Shown here: piece after piece, positions 22,807 to 28,241 of the stretch | Numbering within the stretch: position 1 is the stretch's first letter | Layout: each line of letters starts with the position of its first letter | Source: Bacillales bacterium | GTDB taxonomy: Bacteria; Bacillota_I; Bacilli_A; RF39; UBA660 | Assembly (NCBI GenBank): GCA_016290885.1 | Contig: JAEEVN010000003.1 | Span: 1,115-65,114, forward strand | Length of the DNA stretch: 64,000 bases | Reading direction: 5' to 3' | Notes under the pieces: model-generated | Database searches by the model: none | What the model saw: the letters and a program-made list of their open reading frames with translations, nothing else | Told to the model about the DNA's origin: nothing | Translations under genes and position numbers: made by a program

Positions 22807-23814
22807 TTATTTTCTTCTTTTTCTTTTTTTCATTGCTTCTTTAAATGTAGGTAATAATCCTATACCATTAGTTCTGTGTGGTGGTAATTGATATATATCA
22901 TGACCTGGGAACTCATTTGCTTCAATTAAATAAGGGCCTTTTTCATTTTGACTTACATCCCAACCTACATATCCTAATTCTGGTACTTCTTTTGCTACTT
23001 CTTCTGAGAATTTTTTTACTTTATCCCAATTAGGAATTTGAAAACCTTTTATAGTTATTTTTGATATTGGATGTTCCTTATAGATATTCATCTTTTTATC
23101 TATAGCAACATAATCTAGTACACCAGTTTCTATATTAATAGGAGCTACTAATCCTTCAGAATTAAAATTGTCCACAAAATTATTTTTATTACCCATTCTT
23201 AAATATGCTGCTACTACATAACCATTAAGAGTAACTACTCTCATAGTATTAATTGATGTAGGATGTATCTTTTTTAATTCTTCTATTTGAGTTGCTTTTT
23301 CTTCTACTAAATATCTTTTTGTTTCTAATATATTTTTATATATTTTTTGAACATTTTCCTTAGTTACTTTTACTATTTCAACACCTTTACCACAACTTCC
23401 AATAGGTGGTTTTATAACTATTTCTTTATTCTTTAATGCAAAAGATTCAAATTCTCTATAATTATCTTCAGTTACTTTTAACCAATCTCTTCCTAGATAT
23501 TTTGAATATTTTTCATTAAAAAGTAATTTATCATTAAATATCTTTGAATATTCAAGATTATTATATTTCTTAACAATAGCATTATTTATTCCTCTTGTTA
23601 CTATTGTCTTTCTTTGAGATGCATTTAAATCATACATTTCATATAATTTATAATCCATATATCCTGCTTGATATCTAAGACCACAGTAGATCATATCAAA
23701 GAATAAACGTACTCTATTTAGATTTGTTTTTTCATGAATTTCGTCTATTGTTTTAAACATATTTTTAAAACTCATTGAAGTAATTCTCTTGAAAAGATAT
23801 TTTATTTTATCCAT
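22807..23814 (-). CDS. ATP-grasp ligase (sugar-transfer-associated ATP-grasp-like)
   Basis: 335 aa. The N-terminal DMIYCGLRYQAGYMDYKLYE block and the C-terminal GWDVSQNEKGPYLIEANEFPG are typical of this ATP-grasp subgroup (recognised from memory). Confidence 0.6.
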   Translation of the reverse strand: MDKIKYLFKRITSMSFKNMFKTIDEIHEKTNLNRVRLFFDMIYCGLRYQAGYMDYKLYEMYDLNASQRKTIVTRGINNAIVKKYNNLEYSKIFNDKLLFNEKYSKYLGRDWLKVTEDNYREFESFALKNKEIVIKPPIGSCGKGVEIVKVTKENVQKIYKNILETKRYLVEEKATQIEELKKIHPTSINTMRVVTLNGYVVAAYLRMGNKNNFVDNFNSEGLVAPINIETGVLDYVAIDKKMNIYKEHPISKITIKGFQIPNWDKVKKFSEEVAKEVPELGYVGWDVSQNEKGPYLIEANEFPGHDIYQLPPHRTNGIGLLPTFKEAMKKRKRRK

Positions 23815-23822
23815 TATTTCAC

Positions 23823-24905
23823 CTACTTAATTATTATATTTAAATATTTTGATTCCATACCAATCATTATTGATTCATAATCTAAATCTAGTTCTACTAT
23901 GTCTCCTACTTTATAATCGATATCTGATTCATCAACGTCGATTATAGTATGATCTGATGATCCACCTAATATAAATGATTTCTTATCATGTGGATAAAGT
24001 TGTAGATATCCTCCGATATCACATTTACCTAATGCTACTATAATTCTCTTTTTATTTCCTCTATCTTCGTATTCAATCTTATTACCAAATCCATCTACTA
24101 CTATTTCTCCAATAGGATATGTTGGTTTAGTATTTGATTCTATTACTTCTGCTTCTACAGTAAATACATTTCTTAATCCTGGTAAATAATTCTTCCATAC
24201 TTTAAATTCTTTAATGTATTCAGGAGTAGTGAATAAACCTCCTACTCTTAAATGATTAATTTCTTTTGGCATATTACCATCGATTAATAATTCAACTGAA
24301 GTAGTAGCACCACCAGAAACAACTTCTAGTGTTTCACCTATTTTTTCTTCTATCATATGTTTAGTTTCGATTAATTTACTTAAATTAGTAACAGTAGGTC
24401 TAATTGAACCATAACATGTTAAATTAGTTCCTATTCCTTTAATATGAATATTCTTTAGATTAGTTTTTATATAATCTGCTAATGAAACTAAATCATTTTG
24501 ATCTAATATTCCTTCTCTTAAATCCCCTAAATCTTCCATAAGTATAACATCTTGAATTTTGTTATATTTACTAGCAACTTCGTTCAACTTATCTAGTGTA
24601 TCACGTTCTGAAATTAATGTTGTATCAACATATTTAATAACTTCCTCTAATTCACTAATCATAGGAATTCTAATTAGTAATGTTTTATCTTCTGGATAAA
24701 GATTCTTTATGTTTTTTAAATGTACTACTCTTGAAGATGCATATTCATTTATACCTTCTTCATGAAGAATAGTTATTAATTCTGGCATTGCGTGATATAC
24801 TTTTACAACTGCACATAAACTAACATTATTATCATTACAAATTTTTTTTATAATTCTAGCATTATTTCTGAATGCTTCTTTATCTATTATTAATTTTGGA
24901 TACAT
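23823..24905 (-). CDS. Alanine/ornithine racemase family PLP-dependent enzyme
   Basis: MYPKLIIDKEAFRNNARIIKKICNDNNVSLCAVVKVYHAMPEL resembles the ornithine-racemase-type N-terminus, with the PLP lysine in VVK. 360 aa. Confidence 0.7.
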   Translation of the reverse strand: MYPKLIIDKEAFRNNARIIKKICNDNNVSLCAVVKVYHAMPELITILHEEGINEYASSRVVHLKNIKNLYPEDKTLLIRIPMISELEEVIKYVDTTLISERDTLDKLNEVASKYNKIQDVILMEDLGDLREGILDQNDLVSLADYIKTNLKNIHIKGIGTNLTCYGSIRPTVTNLSKLIETKHMIEEKIGETLEVVSGGATTSVELLIDGNMPKEINHLRVGGLFTTPEYIKEFKVWKNYLPGLRNVFTVEAEVIESNTKPTYPIGEIVVDGFGNKIEYEDRGNKKRIIVALGKCDIGGYLQLYPHDKKSFILGGSSDHTIIDVDESDIDYKVGDIVELDLDYESIMIGMESKYLNIIIK

Positions 24906-26979: not shown

Positions 26980-26987
26980 AAAACCTC

Positions 26988-28241
26988 CTAAAGATTTTTA
27001 ACTTCAATTATAGATTCTTTAATTATATTAAGACCCTTTACTAAAGTTTCTTTATCTATTGTAAGTGCTGGTAATATTTTAAGAACTGAATCTCCTCTAC
27101 CTGCTAATTCTATTACTAAGCCTTTTTCAAAGCATTTATCTAATACTGCTCTAGATAATTTACCATCTTTAAACTCGATACCCCAAATTAAACCTATACC
27201 TCTATAAGTTTCACCTTCATCAAGTAATGGTTTAATTTCTCTTTCTAAGTATTCTTTAACTAATCCTTCTTTTTCTTTTACTTGTCCATCAACATTTTGC
27301 ATTTTATTTAATTCTAGTCCTGCTTTAGCAGCTACTATAGATACTTGTGATCCTCTAAATGTTCCGTTATGTTCACCTGGTCCAAATTTATCATATTCAG
27401 GTTTAATTAAAGTAAGTGCAAATGGAAGACCATATCCTCCAATAGATTTACTCATACATACCATATCAGGTACTATATTAGCTCTTTCAAATGAGAAGAA
27501 AGTACCTGTTCTAGAACATCCAACTTGTACGTCATCTACTATTAATAATATTCCAAAATCATCGCATAATTTTCTTAATCCTTGTAAGAATTCCACGCTA
27601 AATACATTTATTCCACCTTCAGCTTGTACTGTTTCTACTATTATAGCTGCTGGCTTTTCTACACCAGAATGATCATCTTCTAATAAAGTTCTCATATACT
27701 TAATAGTATCAAATCCAGGAATATAATCTGGAGTTGGAATATGAGTAACATTATTAAGTGATACTCCAGCTCCTCCTCTAGCATAACTTTCTGTAGTTAA
27801 TGCAAGTGTACCAAGAGTCATACCATGGAATGCACCCATTAATGCCCAAATCTCACTTCTTCCAGTTACTTTTCTAGCTAGCTTTAATGCTGCTTCAACA
27901 GCATTAGTACCAGTTGGTCCAGTAAACATAATTCTATAATCTAATCCTTTTGGAATTAAATATTCTTCTTCAAAATATTTAATAAATTCTTCTTTTGCTA
28001 TTGCAAACATATCAAGTGAATGTGTAATACCATCATTTGAAATATATTCTAATATTCTTTCTTTTATATAATCTGGATTATGCCCATAGTTAAGAGCACC
28101 TGCTCCATCAAAAAAATCTATATATCTATTACCATCAACGTCTGTGTAATAACTTCCTTTTGCTGATTTCATTACTACTGGCCATTTTCTACAGTAGCTT
28201 CTTACATTTGATTCATATTTTTCAAATACTTCTTTACCCAT
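26988..28241 (-). CDS. Diaminobutyrate--2-oxoglutarate transaminase-like class III aminotransferase (EctB/Dat-like)
   Basis: FEKYESNVRSYCRKWPVV, YIDFFDGAGALNYGHN, GITHSLDM, TGPTGTNAVEAALKLAR, and the PLP lysine context CMSKSIGG. Confidence 0.75.
   Translation of the reverse strand: MGKEVFEKYESNVRSYCRKWPVVMKSAKGSYYTDVDGNRYIDFFDGAGALNYGHNPDYIKERILEYISNDGITHSLDMFAIAKEEFIKYFEEEYLIPKGLDYRIMFTGPTGTNAVEAALKLARKVTGRSEIWALMGAFHGMTLGTLALTTESYARGGAGVSLNNVTHIPTPDYIPGFDTIKYMRTLLEDDHSGVEKPAAIIVETVQAEGGINVFSVEFLQGLRKLCDDFGILLIVDDVQVGCSRTGTFFSFERANIVPDMVCMSKSIGGYGLPFALTLIKPEYDKFGPGEHNGTFRGSQVSIVAAKAGLELNKMQNVDGQVKEKEGLVKEYLEREIKPLLDEGETYRGIGLIWGIEFKDGKLSRAVLDKCFEKGLVIELAGRGDSVLKILPALTIDKETLVKGLNIIKESIIEVKNL

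Follow-up and report, generated by a model that had tools for sequence, protein, structure and literature searches.

A five-gene operon joining a MurT-like ligase and a GatD-like protein devoid of the glutaminase triad to diaminobutyrate synthesis in an uncultured Bacillota member: a candidate system for the ligation of a basic D-amino acid to a peptidoglycan precursor

The closest described relatives of the system treated here are the MurT/GatD complexes of Staphylococcus aureus, Streptococcus pneumoniae and Mycobacterium tuberculosis (structures, 6gs2, 6fqb and 9sq9), in which the acceptor is the alpha-carboxyl of D-iso-glutamate (D-iGlu) of lipid II, the nucleophile is ammonia derived from the glutaminase GatD, and the triad is composed of Cys94 and His189 of GatD and Asp349 of MurT. 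Another comparable system is Aslfm/Racfm of Enterococcus faecium, a co-transcribed ATP-grasp ligase and racemase; Aslfm is a D-aspartate ligase that, with Racfm, puts a D-amino acid on the side chain of the peptidoglycan precursor (the epsilon-amine of Lys) independently of tRNA. Substituents on the D-Glu alpha-carboxyl define peptidoglycan chemotypes (glycine, D-Ala-amide, cadaverine or putrescine, and the diamino acids of B-type murein), and these have been known chemically for decades; we know of no gene for the ligation step. B2-type murein needs a D-diamino acid at this carboxyl, which in the B2-gamma type is accompanied by the L-form (L-DAB/D-DAB in the Schleifer-Kandler scheme; DAB, 2,4-diaminobutyrate). 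In the peptidoglycan of Selenomonas and Veillonella, cadaverine or putrescine is covalently bound to the D-Glu alpha-carboxyl, and no gene is named in the part of the source concerned (PMC12826042). Here we describe an operon of five genes (positions 22807-28241, minus strand; genes 1 to 5 in the order of transcription) in a stretch of 64,000 nucleotides (nt) from a Bacillales bacterium (GenBank assembly GCA_016290885.1, contig JAEEVN010000003.1, positions 1,115 to 65,114 of the forward strand), which is called the window hereafter. We give an even chance to the reading that this operon produces a basic D-amino acid and joins it to a precursor of peptidoglycan, such that DAB, probably in its D-form, is placed on the D-iGlu alpha-carboxyl of lipid II. 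The B-type bridges and the Selenomonas/Veillonella polyamines are known chemically, whereas the window belongs to an uncultured member of the Bacillota of low G+C content; the proposed likeness is that, at the stage of the lipid intermediate, a diamine or diamino acid is joined through an amide to the alpha-carboxyl of residue 2.

Gene 2 (25630..26979, minus strand, 449 amino acids (aa)) encodes a MurT-like ATP-dependent ligase, and gene 3 (24914..25630, minus strand, 238 aa), whose start overlaps the gene 2 stop by 1 nt, encodes a GatD-like protein; the two are thus adjacent and translationally coupled like the canonical pairs. Gene 2 has the domains Mur_ligase_M and MurT_C (PF08353, DUF1727; 85.6 bits), a Cys4 zinc ribbon (C206, C209, C228 and C231), a P-loop reading GTNGKT, and no UDP-binding N-domain, which is the full architecture of MurT. 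It was aligned with S. aureus MurT (6gs2_B) over residues 4-411 (E 2.5e-39), and the NCBIfam MurT models gave 160 and 152 bits, far under the equivalog cut-off of 800 bits. The residues kept in gene 2 and in its clade (see below) are those of the P-loop, Asn84 of the GAN motif, E111, D113/E114, N133, D137, R141, R300, K317 and N320, which include the Asp/Glu pair for Mg, the hinge Arg and the ribose-contacting Asn, and the four ribbon cysteines are invariant. Asn84 corresponds to Asn85 of S. pneumoniae MurT, which contacts the acceptor carboxylate (PMC6085368). With the ATP-, Mg- and acceptor-contacting residues all kept as in canonical MurT, the ligase machinery is intact. By contrast, the third member of the triad is replaced: the MurT loop DNAADGRD reads DNPYSSET in gene 2, Asp349 (GRDTSW) aligns with Thr (clade consensus, ETITW), and this C-domain loop facing GatD is remodelled with the conserved new acidic residues D345 and E355. 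Further clade-specific changes are Q137S, Y141N, N347D and W360Y (S. pneumoniae numbering), together with several extra conserved acidic residues.

Gene 3 was related to GatD both by sequence (6gs2_A, E 2e-15 with HMMER) and by its AlphaFold2 (AF2) model (mean predicted local distance difference test (pLDDT), 75.7), the best Foldseek matches of which were GatD chains (template-modelling (TM) score, 0.71-0.76); in the model, the fold is that of a class I glutamine amidotransferase. The profile scores were low (GATase_3, 31 bits; NCBIfam GatD models, 63 bits for a cut-off of 450 and 37 bits for a cut-off of 400). The nucleophile elbow containing Cys94 in S. aureus GatD (ICGGYQ) reads ITGNAIE in gene 3, Cys94 being paired with Thr in the HMMER alignment and with Gly in the MAFFT alignment, and His189 is replaced by Leu. 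Together with the change of Asp349 in gene 2, the triad of the canonical complex is wholly replaced in the window pair, and the GatD-like subunit is, as far as its residues tell, catalytically dead as a glutaminase. The replacement has a conserved motif of its own, T89-G-N91-x-x-E94, of which T89, N91 and E94 are invariant over 23 diverse GatD-like sequences. The elbow is among the most conserved parts of the protein after the replacement, which argues for a new function and not for decay; the glutaminase site would have been rebuilt rather than abandoned.

The loss of the triad is a property of a whole clade. A profile scan of metagenome contigs yielded 80 loci that contain GatD-like relatives, and all of these approximately 80 relatives had T-G/S-N at the Cys elbow and a hydrophobic residue at the His position, whereas the canonical pairs (Merdibacter, Clostridium lacusfryxellense and streptococci) retained CGG(Y/F)Q and HG. 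An exhaustive HMMER search of 1.84 billion cluster representatives (clusters at 50% identity) detected 264 clusters with E<=1e-30. The top 150 included 111 full-length sequences, of which none had Cys in the Cys94 column and one had His in the His189 column. Note that this profile search and the AF2 models were built on a less diverse alignment than the locus-derived set. In a neighbour-joining tree, the MurT-like proteins with dead partners grouped together in one clade, and the canonical MurT proteins, whose GatD is live, fell outside it. The clade was found only in uncultured Bacillota of the gut, the rumen and similar habitats, with G+C contents of 23 to 60%, and the few names available for the metagenome-assembled genomes (MAGs) are Bacilli bacterium, 'Acholeplasma sp. 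CAG:878', Clostridium sp., Clostridia bacterium, Faecousia and Lachnospiraceae bacterium, among which no cultured carrier of known wall type turned up; the GatD-like proteins are named 'hypothetical protein' at NCBI. A scan of a genome collection with the MurT-like profile, in which the generic GTNGK P-loop pattern was dominant, gave at least three clade members among the matches listed, all from uncultured taxa. Four proteins (P0274, P0279, P0302 and P0376; 698-758 aa) are fusions of the MurT-like and GatD-like parts, with the P-loop near residue 60-66, CxxC pairs and T-G/S-N-A-x-E near 550-600 (in P0274 the latter motif was not matched); the two proteins therefore act together.

Some loci carry the pair in more than one copy. 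There are two tandem MurT-like/GatD-like pairs in L116:2-2553, both without the Cys and the His, which suggests two successive or alternative additions, and L112 has two GatD-like genes. A second MurT-like clade (L009, L011, L016, L023 and L026, from Gastranaerophilales, Muribaculaceae and other MAGs; approximately 31% identity in the best-aligned segment, with matches at ~8001-9260, or ~6928-8181 in L023) was considered as a relative and rejected, for no GatD-like gene lies downstream and the 236-aa downstream gene, next in L011 and L016, is PdxJ and not a GatD-like partner. The 'MurT-like' proteins of Lupo et al. (PMC11915815) were also set aside, since they form an archaeal clade without GatD and are unrelated.

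The window pair differs from canonical MurT/GatD also in its linkage to genes for diamino-acid supply, a racemase, an ATP-grasp ligase and, in related loci, flippases. Gene 1 (26988..28241, minus strand, 417 aa) exceeded two NCBIfam cut-offs (PRK09264, 585 bits for a cut-off of 438; the ectB equivalog TIGR02407, 565 bits for a cut-off of 552), and its best relatives in the PDB were the EctB structures 9s1q and 6rl5 (E ~1e-111 to 1e-114; the next aminotransferase, 1e-53). On these matches we assign it as L-2,4-diaminobutyrate:2-oxoglutarate aminotransferase (DABA aminotransferase, EctB family), which is predicted to make L-DAB from aspartate semialdehyde. Unlike EctB of ectABC, neither gene 1 nor the aminotransferases of eight related loci are accompanied by ectA or ectC: no ectA, ectC or adjacent DABA acetyltransferase was found in the Pfam annotations of the genes called over ~15.6-56.3 kb of the window, and no ectA or ectC among the scanned neighbours of the related loci, including those eight, the nearest case, in L084, being a GNAT match below the threshold at a distance of two genes from the aminotransferase. 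DAB would therefore be an end product for ligation and not an intermediate of ectoine. Other sinks for DAB, such as a decarboxylase or a non-ribosomal peptide synthetase (NRPS), did not turn up among the annotated neighbouring genes, and uses of DAB for ectoine, polyamines or siderophores were rejected on these grounds.

Gene 4 (23823..24905, minus strand, 360 aa) encodes a racemase of the pyridoxal-phosphate-dependent fold-type III (Ala_racemase_N, 74.6 bits), for which no sequence relative was found in the PDB. Its best NCBIfam model was that of ornithine racemase (Orr; 345 bits, under the cut-off of 480), and it shared 40% identity with the racemase beside an arginase in the operon of locus L085. 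It has the fold family of Orr of ornithine-fermenting Clostridia in common, and a basic amino acid is likewise the likely substrate; it differs in that it scored below the cut-off and that its neighbours are wall-related or housekeeping genes, with no context of ornithine fermentation. The linkage of the racemase to DAB synthesis in the window and to arginase in L085 suggests a biosynthetic role for D-DAB or D-Orn, and we propose that gene 4 converts L-DAB to D-DAB. An aminotransferase for DAB together with a racemase fits the L-DAB/D-DAB of B2-gamma murein.

Gene 5 (22807..23814, minus strand, 335 aa) encodes an ATPgrasp_ST ligase (PF14397, 170 bits over model positions 4-275 of 278) with a helical N-terminal region of ~100 residues; in its AF2 model (pLDDT 86) the nearest structures were RimK, glutathione synthetase, ArgX/LysX, PsnB and Ddl (TM score, ~0.45-0.5), ligases whose substrates are peptide carboxylates. 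As judged from the model, its probable role is to attach a further residue at the carboxylate of a peptide. The window resembles Aslfm/Racfm in the joint transcription of a racemase and an ATP-grasp ligase, and differs in the ATP-grasp family (ATPgrasp_ST), in the amino acid, in the additional MurT-like ligase and in the target, which is probably the D-Glu alpha-carboxyl. Orthologs of gene 5 (58-63% identical) were found in spore-forming relatives (L169:7001-8011 and L170:7001-8017) between murA/rpmE and rpiB/spoIID/M23 peptidase genes, with no MurT-like pair within 7 kb; the conservation of the ATP-grasp enzyme exceeds that of the ligase pair, and this enzyme may have an independent role. In L149:2401-11676, three ATPgrasp_ST paralogs lie around genes for a flippase, a MurT-like protein, a GatD-like protein and unannotated proteins of 464 and 252 aa, and this cluster may build a longer peptide branch.

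An earlier examination of this DNA from its letters and open reading frames (ORFs), hereafter the sequence-only reading, had described five co-directional genes with gaps of 8, -1, 8 and 8 nt, and the ORF calls reproduced these exactly. It had also recognized the EctB-like enzyme, the P-loop, Cys4 ribbon and DUF1727-like end of the MurT-like protein, the Cys-less GatD, the family of the racemase, the ATP-grasp ligase and the lack of ectA and ectC, all of which agreed with the profile, alignment and model data given above, the full-length PF14397 match and the ATP-grasp fold of the gene 5 model included. A siderophore or polyamine setting, which it had named as speaking against a role in the wall, did not emerge, there being no decarboxylase or NRPS among the annotated neighbours.

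For the gene neighbourhoods, the loci were dereplicated to 45 lineages at 85% GatD-like identity and the neighbours within four genes of the pair were counted. A DABA aminotransferase was near the pair in eight of the 45 lineages (5/18 among those with three or more genes on both sides) and an ATP-grasp homolog in 12 (8/18 among those with good flanks). The pair-linked aminotransferases are 62-71% identical to gene 1, and the naive chance of finding a single-copy gene in 8/45 is 1e-9 to 1e-12, the lineages not being fully independent. The aminotransferase gene occupies at least three positions (before the ligase gene, after the GatD-like gene, and after the ATP-grasp gene and UPF0029); it accompanies the pair with no ATP-grasp gene nearby in L084 and L134, and with neither an ATP-grasp nor a MurE gene nearby in L084, L153 and L159. 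The most informative variant is one lineage, the L085 group, in which a gene for a SpoVB/MurJ-like flippase comes first and those for an Orr-like racemase, arginase, the MurT-like and GatD-like proteins and an ATP-grasp ligase follow in this order; the aminotransferase is replaced by arginase while the racemase and the ligases stay, which points to ornithine instead of DAB. In another lineage a Na:alanine symporter stands at the position of the aminotransferase.

Genes for peptidoglycan synthesis are also found around the pair. A SpoVB/MurJ-type flippase adjoins it in the L085, L086 and L149 groups, and in three contigs the flippase and the MurT-like protein are encoded by single ORFs of 1003-1050 aa (L105:2587-5598, L137:445-3597 and L140:259-3324), with a gene for a dead GatD-like protein after each of them; L140 shares its assembly project (JAEEGH) with the window, but its organism has 60% G+C. 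The window has a SpoVB/MurJ-family flippase of 550 aa outside the operon (51262..52914, minus strand), next to ftsE-ftsX and a gene for a PcsB-like M23 peptidase; it is 43% identical over the full length to the flippase heading the L085 operon, a value within the range of other shared genes, and is a possible functional partner. A class A penicillin-binding protein (PBP) gene lies directly upstream of the pair in L130, SpoIIP downstream in L104, and a gene for a protein with five LysM domains nearby in L127. In the L134 group the string is VanZ, DABA aminotransferase, MurT-like, GatD-like, ..., MurE. This MurE (L134:11073-12503) passed the NCBIfam cut-off for the diaminopimelate (DAP) ligase and has the motif DDPH. 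The motif of DAP-specific MurE is DNPR; the naming of the L134 protein as a DAP-type enzyme was therefore not relied on, and its substrate for stem position 3 is uncertain, possibly Lys, Orn or DAB.

The loss of the glutaminase residues, combined with neighbours that make and racemise DAB, implies that the ligase probably attaches a diamino acid and not ammonia. On the observed gene content, triad loss, ligase-residue retention, clade structure, neighbourhoods and fusions, the following scheme can be drawn, of which we infer the acceptor, the nucleophile, the stereochemistry, the role of the ATP-grasp enzyme and any cross-linking. The EctB-type aminotransferase would convert aspartate semialdehyde to L-DAB, part of which would be turned into D-DAB by the Orr-like racemase. 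The complex of the MurT-like and the dead GatD-like proteins would activate with ATP a carboxylate of a lipid-linked precursor, most likely the D-iGlu alpha-carboxyl of lipid II as with MurT, and the acyl-phosphate would be attacked by an amino group of DAB in place of glutaminase-derived ammonia. The former glutaminase pocket (T-G-N-x-x-E) and the extra conserved acidic residues may bind or guide the cationic amino acid, the RimK/LysX-like ATP-grasp ligase would probably extend the branch or the stem by a single residue at a free carboxyl, and a SpoVB/MurJ-type flippase would flip the modified lipid II. The appended diamino acid could be the acceptor of a B-type (D-Glu to D-Ala) cross-link or a substituent that modifies charge without cross-linking, as cadaverine in Selenomonas, and the latter is equally compatible with the data. 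The proposal of the sequence-only reading that DAB is the nucleophile has thus gained from the clade-wide loss of the triad, the aminotransferase linkage, the arginase swap and the flippase, PBP and MurE context, and keeps its conditional form as to acceptor, nucleophile and ATP-grasp role.

Several observations weigh against the DAB-ligation scheme. The sequence-only reading had asked whether Cys-less GatD homologs co-occur with a DABA aminotransferase plus a racemase; the aminotransferase does so as counted above, and an Orr-like racemase gene is near the pair in only 2/45 lineages. In 37/45 lineages, many of them on short contigs, no amine-supply gene is near the pair, and the general substrate may therefore be other than DAB. 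Orthologs of gene 5 are also found next to murA and spoIID where no pair is nearby, and DAB could feed MurE (stem position 3) or the ATP-grasp enzyme instead. Every clade member found is from an uncultured organism, and the tree separating the clade was made by neighbour-joining with midpoint rooting only. The B-type version in particular is not supported by the loci retrieved, the sole one from Erysipelotrichaceae (Merdibacter, L010) having a canonical live MurT/GatD. With the C94G variant of GatD as its partner, S. aureus MurT, which is active only together with GatD, can still use free ammonia at pH 8.5 to amidate lipid II (PMC3266927), so that a dead GatD alone does not imply a new nucleophile. 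This last result, together with the retention of all ligase residues, leads to an explanation that we regard as unlikely but serious: the complex would make D-iso-glutamine on lipid II from free ammonia, which is abundant in the gut and the rumen, with the GatD-like protein as a structural activator, and DAB would go elsewhere, e.g., to MurE position 3 or to the ATP-grasp enzyme. The contig names of the relatives mention human gut, camel and rumen, where ammonia could make a glutaminase dispensable, the scarcity of amine-supply genes would be expected, and the L134 MurE with DDPH might take a shorter diamino acid. Against free ammonia stand the elbow, which shows no drift and holds the invariant T89, N91 and E94, the remodelled GatD-facing loop of the MurT-like protein with D345 and E355, the aminotransferase that joins the pair even where neither an ATP-grasp nor a MurE gene is nearby (L084, L153 and L159), and the replacement of the aminotransferase by arginase, with a racemase, at the same operon position, which is hard to explain by amidation.

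The acceptor may be questioned instead of the nucleophile. The pair and the ATP-grasp enzyme might amidate another undecaprenyl-linked precursor with DAB, such as a uronic-acid or pyruvylated unit of a teichuronic, capsular or secondary wall polymer; Pfam describes PF14397 as associated with surface-polysaccharide synthesis ('sugar-transfer associated'), the linked flippases match Polysacc_synt as well as the MurJ/SpoVB models, and bacterial polysaccharides are known to contain uronic acids amidated with amino acids. We consider this improbable, as no glycosyltransferase or sugar-nucleotide gene turned up among the annotated neighbouring genes, which are housekeeping or peptidoglycan genes (PBP, MurE, SpoIIP, LysM protein and M23 peptidases), the entire MurT architecture including the acceptor-contacting GAN motif is kept, and the window ortholog of the linked flippase sits with ftsEX and the PcsB-like gene. 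It is still less probable that a soluble, cyanophycin-like peptide or polyamide, with a basic D-amino acid on its side-chain carboxyls, is built by the two ligases, even though cyanophycin synthetase joins the same two ligase types (G and M domains) and adds Arg to a carboxylate, the MurT-like protein has a weak NCBIfam match to its M domain (1e-8), and the gene 5 model has a weak Foldseek match to CphA1 (rank 49). There the modules are in one protein acting on a poly-Asp primer, and in the window they are in separate genes; moreover, MurT_C, the zinc ribbon and an obligate GatD-like partner mark the ligase as specifically of the MurT family, three contigs have it fused to a flippase, 33/45 lineages lack the ATP-grasp gene at the locus and this gene occurs alone elsewhere, and no cyanophycinase gene was among the annotated neighbours. 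We retain the ligation of DAB to lipid II as the preferred reading.

The limits of the operon were assigned by reading the sequence, which is AT-rich (approximately 27% G+C over the window). Upstream, just past the rlmH stop, a perfect AT-rich palindrome of 22 nt with a T-run (28304..28325, minus strand) is the likely terminator parting the operon from rlmH, and the 89-nt gap ahead of gene 1 contains a TATAAT hexamer (28268..28273, minus strand), a candidate -10 element by consensus resemblance alone, with a weak -35. Downstream, an AT-rich hairpin with 11-bp arms (AAAAACTATCA-TT-TGATAGTTTTT) and a T-run (22784..22807, minus strand), overlapping the gene 5 stop codon, is the likely operon terminator; a near-consensus promoter for ung (TTGATA-17-TATAAT, 11/12 match) comes after it at 22795..22767. 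A consensus terminator scan detected neither flanking hairpin, because their stems have no G+C. With a palindrome and a T-run at each end, the five genes therefore make up a self-contained operon; riboswitches and tRNAs were looked for in the operon region and none was found.

Identical counterparts of the window are a part of contig JAEEGH010001047.1 (GCA_016648415.1) and two JGI metagenome contigs. Just upstream of the operon (28331-31085, minus strand) are genes for a G5-domain M23 peptidase (513 aa), a YycJ-like protein of the metallo-beta-lactamase fold and RlmH, and farther upstream dnaB, rplI, rpsR, ssb and rpsF. In Bacillota, yycJ-rlmH usually trails the WalRK wall-homeostasis operon; no walRK genes were found at the yycJ-rlmH locus of the window. 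Approximately 2 kb downstream of the operon, a conjugation/type IV secretion-like block (approximately 9754-20795, minus strand; G+C 0.30-0.35, as compared with 0.25-0.28 in the surroundings) contains a TraC-like protein, a TraG/VirB4-like P-loop ATPase (596 aa), a 1039-aa M23-domain protein, a weak match to a type IV secretion system pilin and several ORFs without a Pfam family, and is probably an integrated conjugative element. On the plus strand, which carries almost none of the genes, a SAM (S-adenosylmethionine) riboswitch (42106-42189; 68.5 bits, which exceeds the gathering score) is followed by a lone ORF of 55 aa (42252-42419, plus strand), an unusual S-box target; the end of this ORF overlaps the beginning of the peptide deformylase gene, which is convergent with it. 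The rplJ region is preceded by a leader for ribosomal protein L10 (59633-59759, minus strand; 80 bits), an ordinary feature.

In the full-text literature searched, no paper was found that ties MurT/GatD to DAB, type B murein, polyamines or B-type taxa, that describes a bacterial MurT/GatD paralog with a dead glutaminase, or that gives a gene for the ligation of an amino acid or diamine to the D-Glu alpha-carboxyl; the statement of the sequence-only reading that it knew of no ligase assigned to this step is in line with this. The window pair would be a neofunctionalised MurT/GatD, the chemistry of which, with an amino acid as the predicted nucleophile in place of ammonia, we infer entirely. A wider generalization, which we offer tentatively and hold to be somewhat unlikely as a whole, is that this clade, which comprises at least 264 clusters at 50% identity, represents the missing family ligating amino acids or diamines to the D-iGlu alpha-carboxyl on lipid II, with the former glutaminase as an amino-acid-binding subunit; the window organism, as a gut or rumen member of the Bacilli, would then build a D-DAB-substituted or D-DAB-bridged (B2-gamma-like) murein, and its sister lineages would use D-ornithine (from arginase and racemase) or other amino acids. 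A conserved clade of dead-glutaminase MurT/GatD paralogs tied to diamino-acid synthesis and flippases provides a clonable candidate for an old open question. If the proposed reading is true, the family would clearly exemplify the recruitment of a pseudo-glutaminase subunit to handle a new substrate, abundant uncultured gut Bacillota would have non-canonical walls, and this would bear on NOD1/NOD2 sensing, on resistance to lysozyme and cationic peptides, and on MurT/GatD as a drug target.

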